47,816 bases of DNA from Enterobacter phage vB_EclS_CobraSix. Positions 18,833 to 35,470 of the stretch are shown here, piece by piece. The notes beneath the pieces were generated by a model that searched no databases, had not been told where the DNA came from, and saw nothing but the letters and a program-made list of their open reading frames with translations. The stretch lies in sequence record NC_071003.1; one strand, given 5' to 3'. The translations under genes were made by a program, and so were the position numbers. Positions within the stretch are counted from its first letter, which is position 1. Every line of letters begins with the position of its first letter.

Positions 18833-20890
18833 ATGGCTACCACACCTACTCAGAAACCGGTCCCGAGCGAATCACCGATTGATCTGAAATACAACGCCGG
18901 GAAAATTGACGAGTTCGTTACCTCGATGGGATGGACTTACATTGACCGTTTCGGCAATAAGCATTATACGATCGAGGGCCTGCGCTGGCTGGCACAGCAG
19001 GCCATCTCCCAGTTCGGGTATATCACCCTGGACAGCTTTGAAGGCGGAAATACGCTTACGCTTCCAAACCAGGTTCTGCGACTTGAAGCGACCGGCGAAT
19101 ATTATCGCTGGGACGGTCCTTTCCCGAAGGTGGTATCTCCTGACTCCACTCCAGAATCTACAGGCGGCATAGGTCCTGGAGCATGGTTAAGTGTTGGTGA
19201 CGCATCTCTTAGAACACAATTGGGAAATAATGATGGGTTCAGGCTTCTTGGTGAGTGCCCAGATGTAGCCACCCTCCGTCAAACTGAACCCAAGAGCATT
19301 GGCCAGTTGATCCGGGTACAAAATTATTACTCAGACAAATTTGGTGGTGGGGGATTCTTCCGCAGTGTTAATCCCGGATCGCTGGTAGACGATGGCGGTC
19401 TTTATATCAAAACGTCCGGCGGAGCTGTGTGGCGTCGGTGCGTCAAAAATAAACAGGTCAGCACAGAAGAATATGGATGCTGGGATGGGAATACAGGATC
19501 TGACAACTCTGCACGCCTGTTGAAAGCATGCGCCTCTGGTCTTGACGTGAAAATGATGGGGGAGAATTATAATGTCGTTAGCATCCCTTCAAGTCGCTTC
19601 AGCCTGACCGGTAGAATGAAAGCCTCTACTACTGATTTTTCCACAGCATACGGTCGTACGCTCCTGACATTGACCGGAGCGAATGTAACTTATGATATCG
19701 ATATCGACATGCAGAATTTCGGCGCTGGTGGTTTTATCAACCAGGGTACAGACACTGTTGGTCGCATCAAGGTTTCGAATATCTATGGTGCTAACAGAAC
19801 GACTTATGGCCTCCAGAACGCAGTAACGGATGAAGGAACAAGAAACACCATTTCTGCCATTATTCGTAATATTCAGAAGGGGGATACTGGTGTTGATCCG
19901 CAGCCTGCTGCATTCACCGTAGGTGCTACAGCTCAGCGAGGAAACTACCCAGATGTTAACATCTATGACAGTCAAGGTGGGGTAATCGTTGCAGCCACCA
20001 CTGAAACGGTATTCGGTGTTATCACTGCCAGGTTGATCCACGATAATGGAATTTACTGCCTTGATGGTAGTCGCGTTTCGATCTCTGAAATGGTTGTTGA
20101 TAACGGATTAGGCGAGCCCGTTGTAAATGCTGGCGGGATAGTAAACATAGGGGTTCTGCGTATCAGAGAGTGCTCTGGATATGGCATTACATACTCGTAT
20201 AGTGGAACAATGCGCATCGATGCCCTGTATATCGACAACACCCTAAGTTCATCTATTATGCCAATTCTTCGTAGCAGGCCTGATAATGTTAGCAGCACAA
20301 TCCGGATAGGCCGAATCGAGGGAACATGCGTTCTTGCTGGAGTTACTGCTAGCATTCTTCATTCTATGTTCTCTATAACGCAGGGTGTGACAGATTTGTT
20401 CATTGGCGATGTAAACCTGCGAGTGAATTATGTAACCGGATCATATCTTGGCATGGCAGATTTCTCGGGTTGCTCAAGGATCCAGTTAGGTAACTGGACG
20501 ATAGATTTCAACGACACCACAGGCACACTCACATCAGCAAGCATCGCTTACTTCGCTCTACCTTCGACAGCTCAGCTCGCCGGTTCTCAGGTTGGGTATC
20601 AGAACTACAGATCAACCACAGCCACAGTGCGAATGACTAATGTCGGCAACGACACAATAGATTTTGCTGTAGGTCAGGCGCTACAGGTAAATGCAGGACC
20701 CTACATCAGTAGCGCCGTTACAGCCAACTGTCGCATATTTCACGCGGCGGCAGTACCAACAGCAGGCAAGTGGTATAGTGGAGATAAGATATTTATCATC
20801 ACTCCGGGTACAGCAGTGAAACTTGGCTGGGTTTGCACGCAAACTGGAGACTTCTCAGGCACTGCGCCGACATTCCAGTTGATGGTGTAA
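18833..20890 (+). CDS. Tailspike / tail fiber with beta-helix (pectate-lyase-like) receptor-binding/depolymerase domain
   Basis: 685 aa with an N-terminal anchor domain. The C-terminus carries repetitive beta-helix-like motifs (NGIYCLDGSRVSISEMVVDNGLGEPVVNAGGIVNIGVL...). Confidence 0.7.
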   Translation: MATTPTQKPVPSESPIDLKYNAGKIDEFVTSMGWTYIDRFGNKHYTIEGLRWLAQQAISQFGYITLDSFEGGNTLTLPNQVLRLEATGEYYRWDGPFPKVVSPDSTPESTGGIGPGAWLSVGDASLRTQLGNNDGFRLLGECPDVATLRQTEPKSIGQLIRVQNYYSDKFGGGGFFRSVNPGSLVDDGGLYIKTSGGAVWRRCVKNKQVSTEEYGCWDGNTGSDNSARLLKACASGLDVKMMGENYNVVSIPSSRFSLTGRMKASTTDFSTAYGRTLLTLTGANVTYDIDIDMQNFGAGGFINQGTDTVGRIKVSNIYGANRTTYGLQNAVTDEGTRNTISAIIRNIQKGDTGVDPQPAAFTVGATAQRGNYPDVNIYDSQGGVIVAATTETVFGVITARLIHDNGIYCLDGSRVSISEMVVDNGLGEPVVNAGGIVNIGVLRIRECSGYGITYSYSGTMRIDALYIDNTLSSSIMPILRSRPDNVSSTIRIGRIEGTCVLAGVTASILHSMFSITQGVTDLFIGDVNLRVNYVTGSYLGMADFSGCSRIQLGNWTIDFNDTTGTLTSASIAYFALPSTAQLAGSQVGYQNYRSTTATVRMTNVGNDTIDFAVGQALQVNAGPYISSAVTANCRIFHAAAVPTAGKWYSGDKIFIITPGTAVKLGWVCTQTGDFSGTAPTFQLMV

Positions 20891-20920: not shown

Positions 20921-21011
20921 CGATGCGAAGAGGACATGCTTTGACTAGATTTGGCTTTACTTGCAATCGGCATGGGATACAATGCGGTGATTTGCTGTCT
21001 GGTGCTTGCAA

Positions 21012-22304
21012 ATGTCAGATTACACATCGATATTTACGTACATATTTCCGATCATATACTTTACTATACTTTTCTTTCTTGCTGCTCATTCTTTCATCAG
21101 GAACGGGATCAGATTCAAATCTGTAGGTCTGATGTTCCTTGTGATAACTCATTTCGTTGGCTACGCGTCTTTACCTTTCCGTGTTGATGCGCTTGTTCCC
21201 GCTGATGTATATATGCCAGTAGAGTATATAAATGATGTTTCACTAAAATCATTCATCGGAATCATAATATTTTATCTGGCATCTCATTTACTATCGCCAA
21301 AGCCAAGAGGAATGGCGAGAGGGAAGATTTTTTTCGGATCTGCAAACTTATTTGTAGCAATATCGTTGTCGGTATCTATCCTTGCAATGATCATCTTCTA
21401 CATAACCAAAGGTTCATCATTCGACTCAGATAATTACGCATCTAAATTAGGGGAAAATGCGGGGAGCGGGCTTTTGCTTATGCCTATGTCAGCTTTTGTT
21501 CCCGCCGTTATTGTCTATAGCTTCACATCTAAATCAAAATATGCATTTGCTAAGTCATGTGGCATTTCTATCCTGTTTGGTGTTGCTTTTTATATACTCA
21601 TAGGTGGCTCAAGAAACGTAATGTTCTCAGCATTATTAATGGCGACCTTGATATGCTTCGTAACAGGAAAGATAAATAAATTCAAGTTCTTGATTATTGG
21701 ATGCATAGGGCTTTTCCTTGTGGCGGCGCTCGGGATGCTGCGCTACTCAAACTCCATGTCCAGTTCAGGAGCAGCGCTAAGTTTGGCTATACAGTATCTG
21801 ACTGACAGTCTGTCCCCAATAAACTACCAGTACGAGGCGGTAAAATATTACGACAACACAACAAATCCCGACGCTGTTGGCGGAATATATTACATGTTTA
21901 GCCAGTTTTCTGGATTTGTGCCGCGCTTCCTTTGGGAGGAAAAGCCAATTGTTACAATGAACAGCTCATACTATTTTACGACTAACATACTAGGTATGAG
22001 TAGCGGATTGAACATGGCCTCGACTTTGCTAGGATCATCACTAGTGTTGTTCGGCGGATATTTTTATTGGCTGGCTTATGCGTTATCAGGTCTGGTTGTA
22101 AGGATGTTGGATATAATAATAAACAGCAACAAACTTACGGTTATGTCAATAGCTGGTTTCGTAACGGTGCCTTTCACTTTCTTTATGGCCCGAGAAAGCG
22201 TTGAGCTATTTATGTTCATCTACTTTAAAAACCTAATTGTCGTAAGCTTTGTCTACCTTTTATTCAAAGTAGCCTCATCTATTATCCCAAAGAAAGCCGC
22301 TTGA
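21012..22304 (+). CDS. Polytopic membrane protein, Wzy/EpsG-like (putative O-antigen/polysaccharide polymerase; lysogenic conversion)
   Basis: About 430 aa with more than 10 predicted TM segments. Very AT-rich (foreign), carries its own promoter-like TTTACT-N17-TACAAT, and sits directly after the tailspike. Confidence 0.4.
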   Translation: MSDYTSIFTYIFPIIYFTILFFLAAHSFIRNGIRFKSVGLMFLVITHFVGYASLPFRVDALVPADVYMPVEYINDVSLKSFIGIIIFYLASHLLSPKPRGMARGKIFFGSANLFVAISLSVSILAMIIFYITKGSSFDSDNYASKLGENAGSGLLLMPMSAFVPAVIVYSFTSKSKYAFAKSCGISILFGVAFYILIGGSRNVMFSALLMATLICFVTGKINKFKFLIIGCIGLFLVAALGMLRYSNSMSSSGAALSLAIQYLTDSLSPINYQYEAVKYYDNTTNPDAVGGIYYMFSQFSGFVPRFLWEEKPIVTMNSSYYFTTNILGMSSGLNMASTLLGSSLVLFGGYFYWLAYALSGLVVRMLDIIINSNKLTVMSIAGFVTVPFTFFMARESVELFMFIYFKNLIVVSFVYLLFKVASSIIPKKAA

Positions 22305-22340: not shown

Positions 22341-22496
22341 CTAACCCTTCATCTTATTAGTTACTTCAAGCGCCAGCCAGGCAGCGATAAGCAGCAAGAA
22401 TATGGCAACAACCCACTTGTTATCCACGGACCCGGTGACGAGAAGGCACACCATTGAGACACCCAACACTCTTGGTATGTTTATCCCGTCCTTCAT
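22341..22496 (-). CDS. 51-aa membrane peptide
   Basis: MKDGINIPRVLGVSMVCLLVTGSVDNKWVVAIFLLLIAAWLALEVTNKMKG. Its start overlaps the stop of an upstream 21-aa ORF (ATGA). Confidence 0.35.
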   Translation of the reverse strand: MKDGINIPRVLGVSMVCLLVTGSVDNKWVVAIFLLLIAAWLALEVTNKMKG

Positions 22497-22558
22497 ATAT
22501 CAGTACCGGGCAGCGCAAAGACGAACAGCACAACAGCCATGATAAGTAGCCACTCCAT
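22497..22558 (-). CDS. 21-aa hydrophobic leader-like peptide
   Basis: MEWLLIMAVVLFVFALPGTDI, with a perfect SD AAGGAG 8 nt upstream and an extended -10 (TGGTAAAAT) further upstream. Confidence 0.25.
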
Positions 22559-22632
22559 CTTTTTCTCCTTTAAAAAAATCATTTTACCACATGGTTGAGA
22601 ATGATCACTTGATCAGTTCTTCTGAATGATAA

Positions 22633-22652
22633 TACTGTATTAATATACAGTG
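22633..22652. promoter_or_regulatory. LexA (SOS) box TACTGTATTAATATACAGTG
   Basis: CTGT-N8-ACAG palindrome lying 20 bp upstream of the umuD'-like start. Confidence 0.75.
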
Positions 22653-22673
22653 GCGTTTTAGGGGGGGTGGGAC

Positions 22674-22979
22674 ATGGAGGCAAAAGCACAGAGATACAGG
22701 CTTGAACAGTTATGTGGGGTTAACCGCTACTCATGCCTGGTTGAAACGTCAGGCGGTTATGCGCTTTTTCAGCCTGATCTTGTGCCCGACAACGGAACGC
22801 GCGTGCTGGTGCATGCGTTCGGACAACTACAGTTCGCGGTCGTTATGGGCGGGGCGCTCATCACCGAAGACGGTGAAAGCATAGAAGGCGATGGTTTAGA
22901 TGAAGTTGAAGTCATGGGAGTGATAACCTTCTTTATAAATGGCGCTGCGGCGTTCACAGACGACAATCCGGTGATGTGA
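22674..22979 (+). CDS. UmuD'-like polymerase V accessory subunit (truncated S24-family)
   Basis: 101 aa, stop ATGA-coupled to umuC. Shows weak similarity to the UmuD core (QRxxLxQL...ETSG). It lacks the N-terminal arm, and the catalytic Ser/Lys appear substituted. Confidence 0.5.
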   Translation: MEAKAQRYRLEQLCGVNRYSCLVETSGGYALFQPDLVPDNGTRVLVHAFGQLQFAVVMGGALITEDGESIEGDGLDEVEVMGVITFFINGAAAFTDDNPVM

Positions 22980-24247
22980 TGTTTGCCCTGGTCGATGTGA
23001 ACTCATTTTATGCGAGCTGTGAGACAATATTCAGGCCCGATCTGCGCGGAAGACCTGTTGTCGTTCTGTCGAATAACGACGGTTGCGTAATAGCACGTAG
23101 CGCCGAAGCAAAGGCTGTCGGGATAGCGATGGGTGAGCCGTTCTTCAAGCAGAAAGAGCTGTTCCGGCGGGCTGGCGTTGTTTGCTTCAGCAGCAACTAC
23201 GAGCTCTATGCAGACATGTCCAGCCGGGTAATGACTACGCTGGAAGAAATGAGCCCGCGCGTGGAAATTTACAGCATAGACGAAGCCTTTTGCGACCTGA
23301 CCGGCGTAAGAAACTGCCGTGACCTGACTGAATTTGGTAAAGAAATCCGCGCGACCATTTTACAGCGGACGCATCTCACAGTTGGCGTCGGCATAGCCCA
23401 GACCAAGACGCTGGCGAAGCTGGCTAACCATGCTGCGAAAAAATGGCAACGGCAGACTGGCGGGGTGGTTGACCTCTCAAACGTCGACCGGCAGCGCAGG
23501 TTAATGGCACTGGTGCCGGTAGAGGATGTCTGGGGCGTTGGCCGGCGCATCAGCAAGAAACTGAACGCTATGGGCATCAAAACGGCACTGGACCTCTCAG
23601 AACAAAGCACGTGGATTATCCGCAAGCACTTCAATGTCGTGCTGGAGCGAACCGTCCGGGAACTGCGCGGCGAGCCATGCCTGGATCTGGAGGAGTTCGC
23701 GCCGGTGAAGCAGGAAATTGTATGCAGCCGATCTTTTGGCGAACGCATTACTGACTATGAGCAAATGCGGCAGGCTATTTGCAGCTACGCGGCCCGTGGT
23801 GCTGAAAAGCTTCGCGGCGAGCACCAGTATTGCCGTTTTATATCCGCCTTCATTAAGACCTCTCCGTTTGCCCTTAATGAGCCGTATTACGGAAACAGCG
23901 CATCGGTAAGGCTGCTCACGCCAACGCAGGACAGCAGAGACATCATCAACGCCGCGGTAAAGTGTCTGGACAAAATCTGGAAGGACGGTCACCGGTACCA
24001 GAAAGCGGGTGTCATGCTGGGCGACTTCTTCAGCCAGGGCGTGGCCCAGCTCAACCTTTTCGATGACAGTGCACCTCGAGCTGGTAGCGAGAAGTTAATG
24101 GAAGTGCTGGATCACCTGAATGCAAAGGACGGAAAGGGCACGCTCTATTTTGCCGGGCAGGGTATACAGCAGCAATGGCAGATGAAGCGTGAAATGCTGT
24201 CGCCTCGATACACTACGAGATTTTCAGATTTGCTTGTTGTCCGATAA
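22976..24247 (+). CDS. umuC: Error-prone DNA polymerase V catalytic subunit UmuC (Y-family)
   Basis: 423 aa. N-terminus MFALVDVNSFYASCE...SNNDGCVIARS...YSIDEAF is a highly conserved enterobacterial UmuC sequence. Confidence 0.9.
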   Translation: MMFALVDVNSFYASCETIFRPDLRGRPVVVLSNNDGCVIARSAEAKAVGIAMGEPFFKQKELFRRAGVVCFSSNYELYADMSSRVMTTLEEMSPRVEIYSIDEAFCDLTGVRNCRDLTEFGKEIRATILQRTHLTVGVGIAQTKTLAKLANHAAKKWQRQTGGVVDLSNVDRQRRLMALVPVEDVWGVGRRISKKLNAMGIKTALDLSEQSTWIIRKHFNVVLERTVRELRGEPCLDLEEFAPVKQEIVCSRSFGERITDYEQMRQAICSYAARGAEKLRGEHQYCRFISAFIKTSPFALNEPYYGNSASVRLLTPTQDSRDIINAAVKCLDKIWKDGHRYQKAGVMLGDFFSQGVAQLNLFDDSAPRAGSEKLMEVLDHLNAKDGKGTLYFAGQGIQQQWQMKREMLSPRYTTRFSDLLVVR

Positions 24248-24249
24248 AA

Positions 24250-24547
24250 GAGGTGCGCACCTGATAAATCTTACAATCGGATCGGCGGTGATTATGCTGA
24301 TGACAGAGGTAGGCGTAAAGCTGCGTGTTACAAAACTGGAATGAGCTACGCAAAGTTGAGGCGATGGGGCATATATGGGGCATGAAACAGCACTCGCTCT
24401 AAGGTGAACTCAGACGACTGATGTTTTCTACGACTATAACCATCTGTTATTTGGTGCGCTCTTGGACGATCTTTGTCGATTATGAAAAATGTATGCTCAT
24501 GTGATGGGCATGCAAGTTTAGGTTATCTAACCTAATGATATTTATAA
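24250..24547. other. attP region
   Basis: Noncoding stretch between the cargo and the int 3' end. Direct repeats ATGGGGCAT at 24364-24372 and 24375-24383, and TGGGGCAT/ATGGGGCAA at 24573-24591. An 18-bp palindrome TTAGGTTATCTAACCTAA at 24518-24535. Confidence 0.5.
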
Positions 24548-25843
24548 TTAATAACCATCCGATCCCACGGCGTGGGGCATGGATGGGGCAAACTCACTCA
24601 ATTTCTGGTTGAGAATGAGTACTTGGTCCTGGTTATTTTCAGCCATCCAGGATCCGTACACCCGGTAAACCATTTGCGCGTCGGTGTGGCCCATTTGCTT
24701 CGCGATGAAGTTCGGGTTTGCACCGGCAGCTAACGACCAGCATGCATACGTGTGTCGGGACTGGTATGCTCTGCGATAGCGAATCCCGGCGCGTCGCATT
24801 GCCGCTTCCCACGACTGGTTAATCGACCCCACTGCGTAATGATGCCCGGCACGGCCATTACGTGATGCGATCTGCGGGTTGAACACGAACGTGCACGGAT
24901 GCACATCTGTACGGCCATACTCGCGCAGTTTCACCTCAACCTGATACTGCTTACCCAGGCGTGTCAGTTCTGCCTGACTCTTCAGCACGTCGATCGCTGG
25001 CTGAATGAGGTTGATGATACGGTCCGTCCCGGCCTCTGTTTTCGGAAGGGTGAACTCCTTCGTTAACGTGTGGTTCCGGCGGATCATCATCGTACCCGCT
25101 TTCAGGTCGATATCTTCCCAGGCCAGCGACACAAGTTCTCCGTGGCGCACGCCAGTGTAGACGGCCAGCGACCACATGTTTTTCAGCTGCTGGTGGGCGC
25201 AGGCATTAATCATCCTGACGAACTCCTCTCGCGTCAGCGGGTCCGGCTCGCAACGGGAGCGCTTGAGAAGGGCGATCCCATTAAAAGGACTGACCTTCAC
25301 ATACCCACTGTCGGCAGCGAACTTAAACATTCCGCTCATGGTCTTCATGTAGTTGTTGACCGTTCTGACTGAGCGGCCCTTAACAGGCGTTTTCTGCCCG
25401 ATTTTCAGCGTGTGATAACCGGTCAGCAATTCCTTCCTGATAAACAGCAGGTCTTCCTGTGTCACCGCAGAAACAAGCCTGTCCCCGCCAATTCTCGGCA
25501 CCATATTGCGCACTATAGATGTATAGCGTGACATCGCATTGGTGCTGATCTCCATGCGCTTCAGCTCCAGCCATTTATTAGCCAGTTCGAGAACGGTTAT
25601 CTCCTTGCTCTCCACGCCAAACCTTCTCAGGTTCGGTGAATCAGGGAACTGGGCCGCATAATTGAAGTTGCCTGTCTTTATCGCGAAGCACACCGAAGCG
25701 CGCAGCTCGCCAGCGACCTTTCTATTTTTTGGTGTATCCGGCACTCCGAGGCTTTCACGCACCCGGCTGCCTTTATAGATGAACCATATGCGGAGCGTAC
25801 CGCCATGGTTTTCCACGCCTGTTGGGTATGCTGACTTAGCCAT
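24548..25843 (-). CDS. int: Tyrosine integrase
   Basis: 431 aa. C-terminal catalytic region (...HTYACWSLAAGANPNFIAKQMGHTDAQMVYRVYG...) and a strong SD GGAGGG. Confidence 0.9.
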   Translation of the reverse strand: MAKSAYPTGVENHGGTLRIWFIYKGSRVRESLGVPDTPKNRKVAGELRASVCFAIKTGNFNYAAQFPDSPNLRRFGVESKEITVLELANKWLELKRMEISTNAMSRYTSIVRNMVPRIGGDRLVSAVTQEDLLFIRKELLTGYHTLKIGQKTPVKGRSVRTVNNYMKTMSGMFKFAADSGYVKVSPFNGIALLKRSRCEPDPLTREEFVRMINACAHQQLKNMWSLAVYTGVRHGELVSLAWEDIDLKAGTMMIRRNHTLTKEFTLPKTEAGTDRIINLIQPAIDVLKSQAELTRLGKQYQVEVKLREYGRTDVHPCTFVFNPQIASRNGRAGHHYAVGSINQSWEAAMRRAGIRYRRAYQSRHTYACWSLAAGANPNFIAKQMGHTDAQMVYRVYGSWMAENNQDQVLILNQKLSEFAPSMPHAVGSDGY

Positions 25844-25888: not shown

Positions 25889-26134
25889 TCATTGGCGCGC
25901 ACCCGGCTGTTTCTTTGACATGCTCTCAACCCACTGGTCGACAGCCTTTCGGTTGTACATGCACTCACTGTTTTCTTTTGGATTTCCGTCAGGTGCAACG
26001 TGAAGATATTCGCGTCCAACCATCCAGGACTTTTTACGAGCTGCCTCGATAGTTCCCGGGCGAAGTCCGGTAATCTCGACGAGCTTCTCTTGTGTTACCC
26101 AGTCGTTGGGCACAATTAAGGTCATTTCGCTCAT
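25889..26134 (-). CDS. xis: Excisionase
   Basis: 81 aa immediately upstream of int, with an MerR/Xis-like HTH (LVEITGLRPGTIEAARKK). Confidence 0.6.
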   Translation of the reverse strand: MSEMTLIVPNDWVTQEKLVEITGLRPGTIEAARKKSWMVGREYLHVAPDGNPKENSECMYNRKAVDQWVESMSKKQPGARQ

Positions 26135-34744: not shown

Positions 34745-35377
34745 TTAGCGTTTGCGGCGGTAAATTCGGTGCTCAATCATTACACCGATAATGGTTAAAG
34801 GCTGGTGATCGCTGTTAATGACAGGGTAGTCGTCATTCAGTGGGACCAGTTCAAAGTGCTGGCAGCCGAGAGGGTCTACCCATGTCGGGCGGTATTTTTT
34901 GAAGGTTGCCTGTGTTCCGCCGTTCTTCGCAACAACAAATTCCCCAGGCGTGGGTTCTACCTCAGGGTCGACAATAATAACGTCACCAGCCTTAAAATCT
35001 GGTTCCATTGAGTCGCCTTCAATACGCAACGCAAAGGTGTGCTGGGACACATCCAGATCAGTAAGTATGTATTCAAGGCTGCCATCGAAAGCCTCGATAG
35101 GGTTTTTCTCAGCCAAGGCTCCTGCCTGTACGTAGCTTATCAACGGAACTCTCCTGCTGTTGATCTCTGCCATCGGCATAAACGCGCCGCCGTTCATTAG
35201 CCAATCGGCATCGCATTTAAGCGCCTTGGCTATTCCAATTATATTACGTGGCTTGAGAGTTTTCCCATCTTCAATGCTCTGCCATGACTGCTGCCGAATA
35301 CCGGCCTTCTCAGCAGCTTCTGTCTGGGTTAATCCCAGCTCAATTCTTTTTTGTTTAACGCGATCCGCAAGGCTCAT
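34745..35377 (-). CDS. cI: CI-like repressor (HTH_XRE + S24 LexA-like autopeptidase)
   Basis: N-terminal HTH LGLTQTEAAEKAGIRQQSWQSIE, then GDSMEP (Ser) and FKKY (Lys). Confidence 0.85.
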   Translation of the reverse strand: MSLADRVKQKRIELGLTQTEAAEKAGIRQQSWQSIEDGKTLKPRNIIGIAKALKCDADWLMNGGAFMPMAEINSRRVPLISYVQAGALAEKNPIEAFDGSLEYILTDLDVSQHTFALRIEGDSMEPDFKAGDVIIVDPEVEPTPGEFVVAKNGGTQATFKKYRPTWVDPLGCQHFELVPLNDDYPVINSDHQPLTIIGVMIEHRIYRRKR

Positions 35378-35404
35378 AAATCCCTCTCTCTGTATGCCTT
35401 GATA

Positions 35405-35470
35405 GTCACAGTTAAAACTGTAATTGACAAACAGAAATAACTGTCACAGAATACAGATAAAACTGTGGAG
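35405..35470. promoter_or_regulatory. OR operators with divergent PRM/PR
   Basis: Three ACAG-N-CTGT type sites, including ATACAGATAAAACTGTGG. TTGACA lies at 35424-35429. Confidence 0.5.

Follow-up and report, generated by a model that had tools for sequence, protein, structure and literature searches.

The genome of Enterobacter phage vB_EclS_CobraSix (NC_071003.1), analysed as a single stretch of 47,816 nucleotides (nt) and referred to here as the window, carries a two-gene umu cassette on its plus strand (22609-24247). In this cassette a short gene (22674..22979, +), which encodes a predicted HumD/UmuD'-like small subunit of 101 amino acids (aa), lies behind a LexA (SOS) box and is joined to umuC, the gene for the catalytic subunit of a DNA polymerase V (Pol V). 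The short protein lacks both the catalytic dyad of UmuD and the tip of the N-terminal arm seen in UmuD', and the reading preferred here, with a probability of about 0.5, is that it serves as a cleavage-independent accessory subunit of UmuC in a phage Pol V. In enterobacteria, SOS mutagenesis comes mainly from Pol V, and the slow, RecA*-dependent cleavage of UmuD is one of several checkpoints on its activity. An earlier note, made from the letters of the window alone, had described an SOS-repressed mutasome that bypasses the UmuD-to-UmuD' step; an uncleavable UmuD'-like protein and a LexA box are indeed what the analysis found, and the concept itself was already known from HumD of phage P1.

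Relationship of the short protein to UmuD' and HumD

By profile comparison, the 101-aa protein is a diverged homolog of UmuD' and HumD with an S24/LexA-like beta-fold core. An exhaustive profile search recovered 170 clusters at 50% identity, mostly of 100-110 aa, and 421 relatives of this short family were found in IMG/VR. The profile of the broad alignment matches E. coli UmuD with E=3.2e-8 and UmuD' with E=1.8e-6, and in hhalign the broad alignment pairs with a canonical phage UmuD at 97.8% probability (E=1.3e-12) and, from end to end, with a HumD-family protein of an E. coli prophage at 97.8% (E=1.2e-12). A match to PHROG 3469, annotated as 'UmuD-like protein', was obtained with E=2.4e-33, residues 3-96 lying on positions 10-103 of a profile of 106. 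The S24/UmuD relationship on which the earlier note depended is recovered by these alignments, and the 101-aa protein has neither a dyad nor an upstream extension to a full-length UmuD.

Significance in these comparisons is reached only with a deep alignment (A2). A shallow profile of 19 close sequences (A1) found no match among PDB sequences and attained a probability of 7.8% against UmuD in hhalign. Pfam returned no match to the 101-aa protein even at E<=10 and no S24 domain (PF00717) in ten longer relatives, while the NCBIfam HumD model scored 12.2 bits against a cut-off of 120 and covered the C-terminal 26 residues only. The region likewise had no megablast match in the phage collection, the relatives having been reached by tblastn.

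The limits of the protein are well defined. An in-frame TAG (22659-22661) closes the reading frame upstream, which makes an N-terminal extension impossible, and homologs of the same type all start at the same Met. At 101 aa against 139 aa, the protein is shorter than UmuD by the 38 residues that had been estimated. Most of the distant members of the family begin with MGFPSPAxDYxE, the UmuD sequence found immediately after the Cys24/Gly25 cleavage site, and one distant relative of 141 aa (P0079) retains a UmuD-like N-terminal tail with the cleavage site.

Loss of the catalytic dyad and of the arm tip

In UmuD, self-cleavage relies on a Ser60/Lys97 dyad, and neither residue has a counterpart in the short protein. 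Lys97 corresponds to Ala55 in HMMER, MAFFT and hhalign alignments (FTVKKL against LQFAVV), and across 92 scorable representatives this position is occupied by Ala in 78 and by Gly in 11, never by Lys. Ser60 lies in the segment GDSMIDGGISD, in whose place the short protein has an 11-residue deletion, and no alignment of the 101-aa protein offered an equivalent of Ser60. With the dyad absent, the protein is predicted to be non-catalytic, as had been proposed. The residue pairings behind that proposal have to be replaced: GGYAL does not take the place of GDSM, which falls in or beside the deletion, and ITED does not take the place of VKKL, which pairs with FAVV. The Cys/Ala-Gly cleavage-site tail typical of self-cleaving UmuD proteins is also missing.

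The N-terminus ends further inside the protein than a simple pre-cleaved form would. Met1 aligns with Ala31 of UmuD, so that residues G25-A30, the GFPSPA tip of the arm, are absent from proteins of the window's type, and residues 1-8 of these proteins are variable (MEAKAQRY, MHAAVPKL, MKPASQSY and others). In a second group of family members, here called the arm type, the GFPSPA tip is nearly invariant. The proposal that the protein starts out pre-truncated holds as far as the N-terminal tail is concerned, which is indeed lacking, and fails as to the start point, which lies not at the cleavage point but 6 residues inside the UmuD' arm. Since the arm tip is absent, the protein is not a straightforward mimic of UmuD'.

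The opposite end of the protein carries a tail of the form DDxPx[M/I], which is common to the short family and HumD and is not found in canonical UmuD. The tail of the 101-aa protein, FTDDNPVM (22953-22976), pairs with the HumD tail EFDDCPVM; it is predicted to be disordered, with a predicted local distance difference test score (pLDDT) of 30-45, and may represent a short linear binding motif. In one relative (P0060) the tail reads DDDIPIM and resembles DDDIPF, the C-terminal tip of SSB.

The LexA box, the promoter and the gene junction

The LexA box TACTGTATTAATATACAGTG (22633-22652, +) is a perfect match to TACTGTAT-N4-ATACAGT, a pattern that occurs at one site in the window, where 0.02 would be expected by chance. 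The box had been recognised as canonical, and it is retained in 77/77 loci of the same type; its position upstream of the short gene also stands, the exact gap to the ATG at 22674 being 21 nt rather than 20 bp. On the combined strength of a perfect consensus and a conserved box, the cassette is predicted to be LexA-regulated. A -35-like hexamer, TTGATCA (22609..22615, +), was read from the sequence and assigned to a putative SOS promoter. A consensus promoter scan did not pick it up; E. coli A14 has the same hexamer 17-21 nt 5' of its LexA box, and both boxes of a locus with three genes (L100, described below) have it on their 5' side. The short gene is preceded by a G-rich, Shine-Dalgarno-like stretch, GGGGGGTGGGA (22661..22671, +), 3-13 nt 5' of the ATG.

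The two genes meet in a stop/start overlap, TGATG (22977..22981, +), read from the sequence and suggesting translational coupling. The earlier note had called the genes ATGA-coupled: coupling is upheld, the junction itself being TGATG with a 1-nt overlap and not ATGA.

A looser search for CTGT-N8-ACAG gave one further match in the window (35441-35456). It was rejected as a second LexA box, since AACTGT motifs are repeated around it in the intergenic region of cI and cro. These repeats, at 35400-35470, lie between the cI-like repressor gene and a small helix-turn-helix (HTH)-like open reading frame (ORF) that starts at about 35477 on the cro side, and probably represent phage operators with a likeness to LexA half-sites.

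An apparently intact UmuC

The second gene encodes a Pol V-type, Y-family catalytic subunit of 422 aa (22979..24247, +) recognised by both NCBIfam and Pfam. Its identification as UmuC in the earlier note is secure, with 869 bits against a cut-off of 431 for the NCBIfam model NF002955. The mechanically called ORF starts at a GTG (22976) and would give 423 aa; because the model aligns residues 2-423 with profile positions 1-422 of 422 and UmuC homologs all begin with MFAL, the true start is almost certainly the ATG at 22979. The Pfam domains IMS, IMS_C, DUF4113 and IMS_HHH are all present, together with D6 (FALVDVN), D101/E102 (SIDEAF), QLNLF at 357-361 and a canonical C-terminal SDLLVVR tail. 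From E. coli UmuC, we take D6 and D101-E102 to be the catalytic residues and QLNLF to be the beta-clamp motif. The protein shares 91-93% aa identity with UmuC of phages Oslo and PHB10, and the ratio of nonsynonymous to synonymous substitutions (dN/dS) for umuC is 0.01-0.03 at dS of about 0.3. On this evidence UmuC is predicted to be intact.

Co-evolution of UmuC with a short partner was considered and rejected, only 9 conservative differences being found. One of the partner-specific changes is at residue 5 (22991-22993), which is Val in UmuC proteins with an arm-less partner and Cys in those with a canonical UmuD. This residue adjoins the catalytic Asp6, near the modelled position of the UmuD' arm tip; the change is conservative and is the sole partner-specific one there.

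Two subtypes that differ in arm, operator and umuC linkage

A set of 104 related loci was fetched from GTDB genomes and IMG/VR and scored for N-terminal type, LexA box and downstream umuC. The arm-less type, to which the window belongs, accounts for 77 loci (56 distinct alleles) and the arm type for 22 loci (22 alleles), a ratio that is biased because loci were sampled with alignment patterns of the window's type; associations within each subtype are free of this bias. For the box survey, which was anchored on the aligned Met, CTGT-N8-ACAG was sought within 200 nt upstream. It is present in 77/77 arm-less loci, at 32-40 nt and in 18 sequence variants, and in 2/22 arm-type loci. The box is thus conserved although the flanking DNA diverges.

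Linkage to umuC was counted in loci with at least 1.2 kb of downstream DNA, 67 of the arm-less and 19 of the arm type. In the arm-less type, umuC abuts or overlaps the short gene in 62/67 loci, follows about 600 bp further on in 4/67 and is absent from 1/67; among arm-type loci the corresponding counts are 0/19, 0/19 and 19/19. Presence of the arm and linkage to umuC are therefore anticorrelated (0/19 against 66/67). A functional link of the short protein with UmuC is suggested by the stop/start overlap in the 62/67 loci and by the position of umuC in the same cluster in the further 4/67. The same two-gene cassette is present in E. coli A14, there too behind a perfect consensus box, and its short gene is called 'hypothetical protein' by the Prokaryotic Genome Annotation Pipeline (PGAP).

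The short gene is under purifying selection. Its median dN/dS is 0.16 over 1,188 pairs, the 56 intact alleles extend down to 60% aa identity with dS up to about 1.9, and the family alignment has 24 invariant columns. These figures bear on the idea that the short ORF is a decaying, functionless umuD remnant and that UmuC relies on UmuD' from the host. Such a view could appeal to a protein shorter than UmuD', with an internal deletion, lost catalytic residues and no Pfam match, and to the existence of some visibly decayed loci. It is hard to reconcile with 56 intact alleles at this dN/dS, with the conservation of the start, the stop overlap and the LexA box, or with the invariant columns and the 170 cluster representatives; the pseudogene reading was rejected on dN/dS, and decay is accordingly judged very improbable. 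Among the decayed versions, a Raoultella locus (L030, 2947-3117) has a truncated short ORF of 56 aa before an intact umuC, another (L096, 3060-3305) has a frameshifted short gene, and a third (L103) keeps only a umuC remnant 2 kb away.

Nucleotide homology between the window and phages Oslo, PHB10 and ENT39118, which carry canonical umuDC, starts exactly at the ATG of umuC, which points to the small-subunit gene as an exchanged module. A further arrangement was found in four loci (L011 and L100-102), where an arm-less short gene is followed by a full-length canonical umuD and then umuC (L100:2986-5170). The umuD gene of these three-gene loci has its own TTGATCA promoter and LexA box, a near-duplicate of those of the short gene. 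They look like an evolutionary intermediate between the canonical phage umuDC and the two-gene operon.

In arm-type orphans, a recurrent CTGG-N8-CCAG-like palindrome, for example AACTGGCATTTCACCCAGGC, was observed at a fixed distance, about 122-128 nt, upstream of many genes that have no LexA box (L012, L013, L017, L019, L020, L023, L108 and L109). It might terminate the gene before it or be an operator of another kind.

Proposed function and competing explanations

If the short protein is a cleavage-independent accessory subunit, the cassette would operate as follows. DNA damage would promote LexA cleavage through RecA* and so derepress the operon, and the same signal would cleave the phage's own S24-type cI repressor; as this repressor combines an HTH with a Peptidase_S24 domain, the operon and prophage induction are expected to answer the same RecA* signal. 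Both proteins would then be produced together, the small one associating with UmuC. The slow, RecA*-mediated self-cleavage of UmuD to UmuD' would not be needed, and translesion capacity would be available early, which would aid the phage or lysogen in replicating damaged DNA. The data establish the homology and fold, the missing dyad, tail and arm, an SOS box and a umuC junction kept across loci, and purifying selection; physical binding to UmuC, the oligomeric state of the short protein, its support of translesion synthesis and the benefit in timing are inferred. Pol V still requires transfer of RecA-ATP from the RecA filament, a checkpoint that is left in place when cleavage is skipped.

Several observations weigh against this proposal. 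In the AlphaFold-modelled Pol V mutasome, one of the UmuD' arms has its conserved N-terminal end beside the UmuC active site (PMC11791011; also PMC12926913), and this arm tip, a modelled UmuC contact, is absent from the 101-aa protein. The model further docks the C-terminal carboxylate of UmuC onto S36/T71/K73/E69 of UmuD' (PMC11791011), which, adding 24 to UmuD' numbering, are Ser60, Thr95, Lys97 and Glu93 of UmuD; the 101-aa protein has, respectively, the deletion, Gln53, Ala55 and Gln51 at these positions. Armless UmuD' dimerises and does not support mutagenesis, according to Peat 1996 as summarised in PMC11791011. On the side of the polymerase, Oslo, PHB10 and ENT39118 combine the same UmuC with a canonical UmuD, and UmuC proteins with a short partner are distinguished from those with a canonical UmuD by 9 scattered conservative positions, none of them in the C-terminal tail. 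Finally, the three-gene loci retain umuD beside the short gene, which argues against plain redundancy of the short protein with UmuD'.

The missing arm and cleft, the unchanged UmuC and the three-gene loci together make a modulator, brake or heterodimer partner a strong rival. Here the short protein would bind UmuC, an arm-bearing UmuD' or both, with UmuD' coming from the host or, where three genes are present, from the phage itself, and would tune or brake Pol V, either as one half of a mixed small-subunit pair or by holding UmuC stable and low-mutagenic until UmuD' appears. A role of this kind would fit the loss of the arm tip and of the cleft residues on which the Pol V model relies (PMC11791011), the canonical C-terminal tail of UmuC, the interchangeability of this UmuC with those paired with canonical UmuD, and the separate LexA boxes of the short gene and umuD in L011 and L100-102. 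It would also agree with the asymmetric roles of the two UmuD' protomers in that model and with PolB2 mutasomes that have duplicated small subunits and keep the arm in one copy only (both PMC11791011). However, 62/67 loci have no phage umuD, which makes this explanation depend on host UmuD, and the cleft for the UmuC tail is absent from the short protein too, so that neither protomer role clearly fits. Overall it is a tentative alternative, less probable than the accessory-subunit reading.

An explanation that leaves the polymerase aside is that the short protein acts as a decoy towards some other component of the SOS response. Its uncleavable, LexA-like core might fill the RecA* groove and dampen cleavage of LexA, cI or UmuD, or its acidic tail might compete for proteins that bind the SSB tail. 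The orphan state of the arm-bearing relatives (0/19 with umuC), one of which adjoins dinI in mEp390, is in keeping with this, as is an arm-less locus with a LexA box and no umuC (L010). The DDxPx[M/I] tail, conserved in HumD and the short family, resembles the SSB tip in P0060 and has the low pLDDT expected of a linear motif. Yet the resemblance to SSB is an impression from sequence, conservation of the umuC stop/start overlap is difficult to explain without a joint function, and according to the literature UmuC is the route by which HumD, the closest relative to have been characterised, acts. A decoy is thus considered improbable, though less so than decay.

A wider claim would be that the arm-less mini-HumD stands for a phage Pol V architecture of its own, in which UmuC is permanently paired with a small subunit devoid of both contacts held essential in the model; the anticorrelation of arm and umuC linkage would then mirror two jobs divided within one family. 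This is doubtful, and it is put forward tentatively.

Phage setting of the cassette

From its gene content, the window can be assigned to an ES18/ENT1-like temperate siphophage or prophage of Enterobacter-type hosts. Its structural genes find matches at 80-89% in Enterobacter phages ENT1/BHUENT and Salmonella phage ES18, and Enterobacter hormaechei is the source of the nearest relatives of the proteins studied. Upstream of the cassette are the tailspike gene (18833-20890) and a gene for a WzyE-like O-antigen polymerase of 432 aa (21006-22304, +; Pfam PF06899, E=3e-18). The latter, placed between tailspike and umu cassette, is probable lysogenic-conversion cargo, and in E. coli A14 the equivalent slot holds an acyltransferase instead. 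Between this gene and the umu promoter (22341-22560) are small hydrophobic minus-strand ORFs with no Pfam match, among them a 51-aa ORF, MKDGINIPRVLGVSMVCLLVTGSV... (22341-22496), and a shorter one ending near 22500-22560.

Downstream, the intergenic region between umuC and the integrase gene int (24248-24547) is the probable side of the phage attachment site attP, and the mEp390 record annotates attP at the equivalent position. Several E. coli genomes contain DNA with 94% identity to the spacer at about 24357-24500 within it, bordered by an integrase remnant on one side and on the other by a directly adjoining gene of the HumD family (L003:2619-3008) or for an 'S24 family peptidase'. The region is followed by the tyrosine integrase gene (24548-25843, -; Pfam Arm-DNA-bind_2 and Phage_integrase) and an excisionase-like DUF1233 gene (25889-26134), and the cI-like repressor with HTH and Peptidase_S24 domains is encoded at 34745-35377 (-).

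A location on the attP side had been regarded as unusual for a lambdoid phage. This does not hold, as the slot between tail fibre and int/attP is the normal one for umuD-like cargo, which occupies it in mEp390, Oslo, PHB10, ENT39118 and 421 IMG/VR matches. This attP-proximal slot hosts HumD, an arm-type gene, an arm-less gene with umuC, or canonical umuDC in different phages.

Significance

Mobile Pol V variants can raise the supply of mutations and, with it, the evolution of antibiotic resistance in clinical Enterobacter, Klebsiella and E. coli. The short family is widespread and is invisible to Pfam and NCBI annotation models. Its arm-less, umuC-coupled subtype amounts to a natural experiment on what the UmuD' arm and the former protease cleft do in the mutasome, a question to which AlphaFold models and older genetics have so far given the only answers. 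Should the pair prove proficient in translesion synthesis, the arm-tip and cleft contacts would be dispensable or replaced, for instance by the DDxPxM tail. Should it not, the short protein would be an SOS-timed brake or hand-off factor that holds UmuC in a stable, non-mutagenic state until an arm-bearing UmuD' comes in as its replacement or partner. If the protein is an ordinary HumD-like activator after all, the gain would be improved annotation and a further example of a known strategy.

Comparison with known systems

The closest functional precedent is HumD of phage P1, described in two reports as a UmuD' homolog that is already activated, is regulated by LexA and supports mutagenesis together with UmuC (PMC7092418, PMC9603915, both citing McLenigan 1999). 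Like the 101-aa protein, HumD (NF051876, 129 aa) is phage-encoded and devoid of the UmuD N-terminal tail, which makes RecA-mediated cleavage unnecessary, and it is LexA-regulated, as the short gene is predicted to be (PMC7092418, PMC9603915). The HumD-family protein of an E. coli prophage resembles the short family in its end-to-end alignment at 97.8% and in its DDxPVM tail, and the HumD-family sequence, like that of the window, has no dyad, T/Y standing where Ser60 would be and Met in place of Lys97. In contrast, HumD starts at the Gly25 equivalent with a GFPSxAxDY arm and keeps the Ser60-loop segment, whereas the 101-aa protein is 28 aa shorter and is without both the arm tip and the 11-residue loop. 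Moreover, P1 has no umuC, and in the window the short gene is translationally coupled to a umuC of its own.

By sequence, the 101-aa protein belongs to PHROG 3469, whose members of about 106 aa include gp26 of mEp390, a protein of phiES15 and many Klebsiella phage proteins. Shared features are the loop deletion, Ala/Gly at the Lys97 position, the tail and the slot between tail fibre and int/attP. Typical members differ in starting with MGFPSPAxDY[IV]E, in being orphans (0/19 with umuC) and in having a LexA box in 2/22 cases; the window's subtype matches the profile only from position 10, has the box in 77/77 loci and is nearly always umuC-coupled.

The order of LexA box, small subunit and umuC is that of the canonical umuDC/mucAB operons. 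Three phages, vB_SosS_Oslo (Salmonella), PHB10 (Escherichia) and ENT39118 (Cronobacter), use the same genome slot for a UmuC that is 75-93% identical. Unlike the window, they encode a full-length UmuD with the Cys/Gly site, GDSM (Ser60) and VKRL (Lys97) intact and thereby retain RecA*-dependent activation; in the window, a short, predicted non-catalytic gene product replaces UmuD. A more distant parallel is provided by YolD/YqjX, the partners of the Gram-positive UmuC-like proteins YqjW and UvrX, which also have a small, non-proteolytic UmuD'-like fold and are encoded in SOS operons with a Y-family polymerase, often on prophages (PMC6511836, PMC12926913). They belong to a different family (PF08863), and their N-terminal arm, a predicted polymerase contact, is conserved, whereas that of the window's protein is lost.

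No description of the short family, of the loss of its dyad loop or of its two subtypes was found in the literature searched. The family itself is already known as PHROG 3469 and as 'UmuD-like' in mEp390 and phiES15, and so are the idea of a pre-truncated UmuD', from P1 HumD, and the presence of phage umuDC in this slot. What appears to be new is the arm-less subtype, its coupling to umuC and to a LexA box, and the anticorrelation between arm and umuC linkage.

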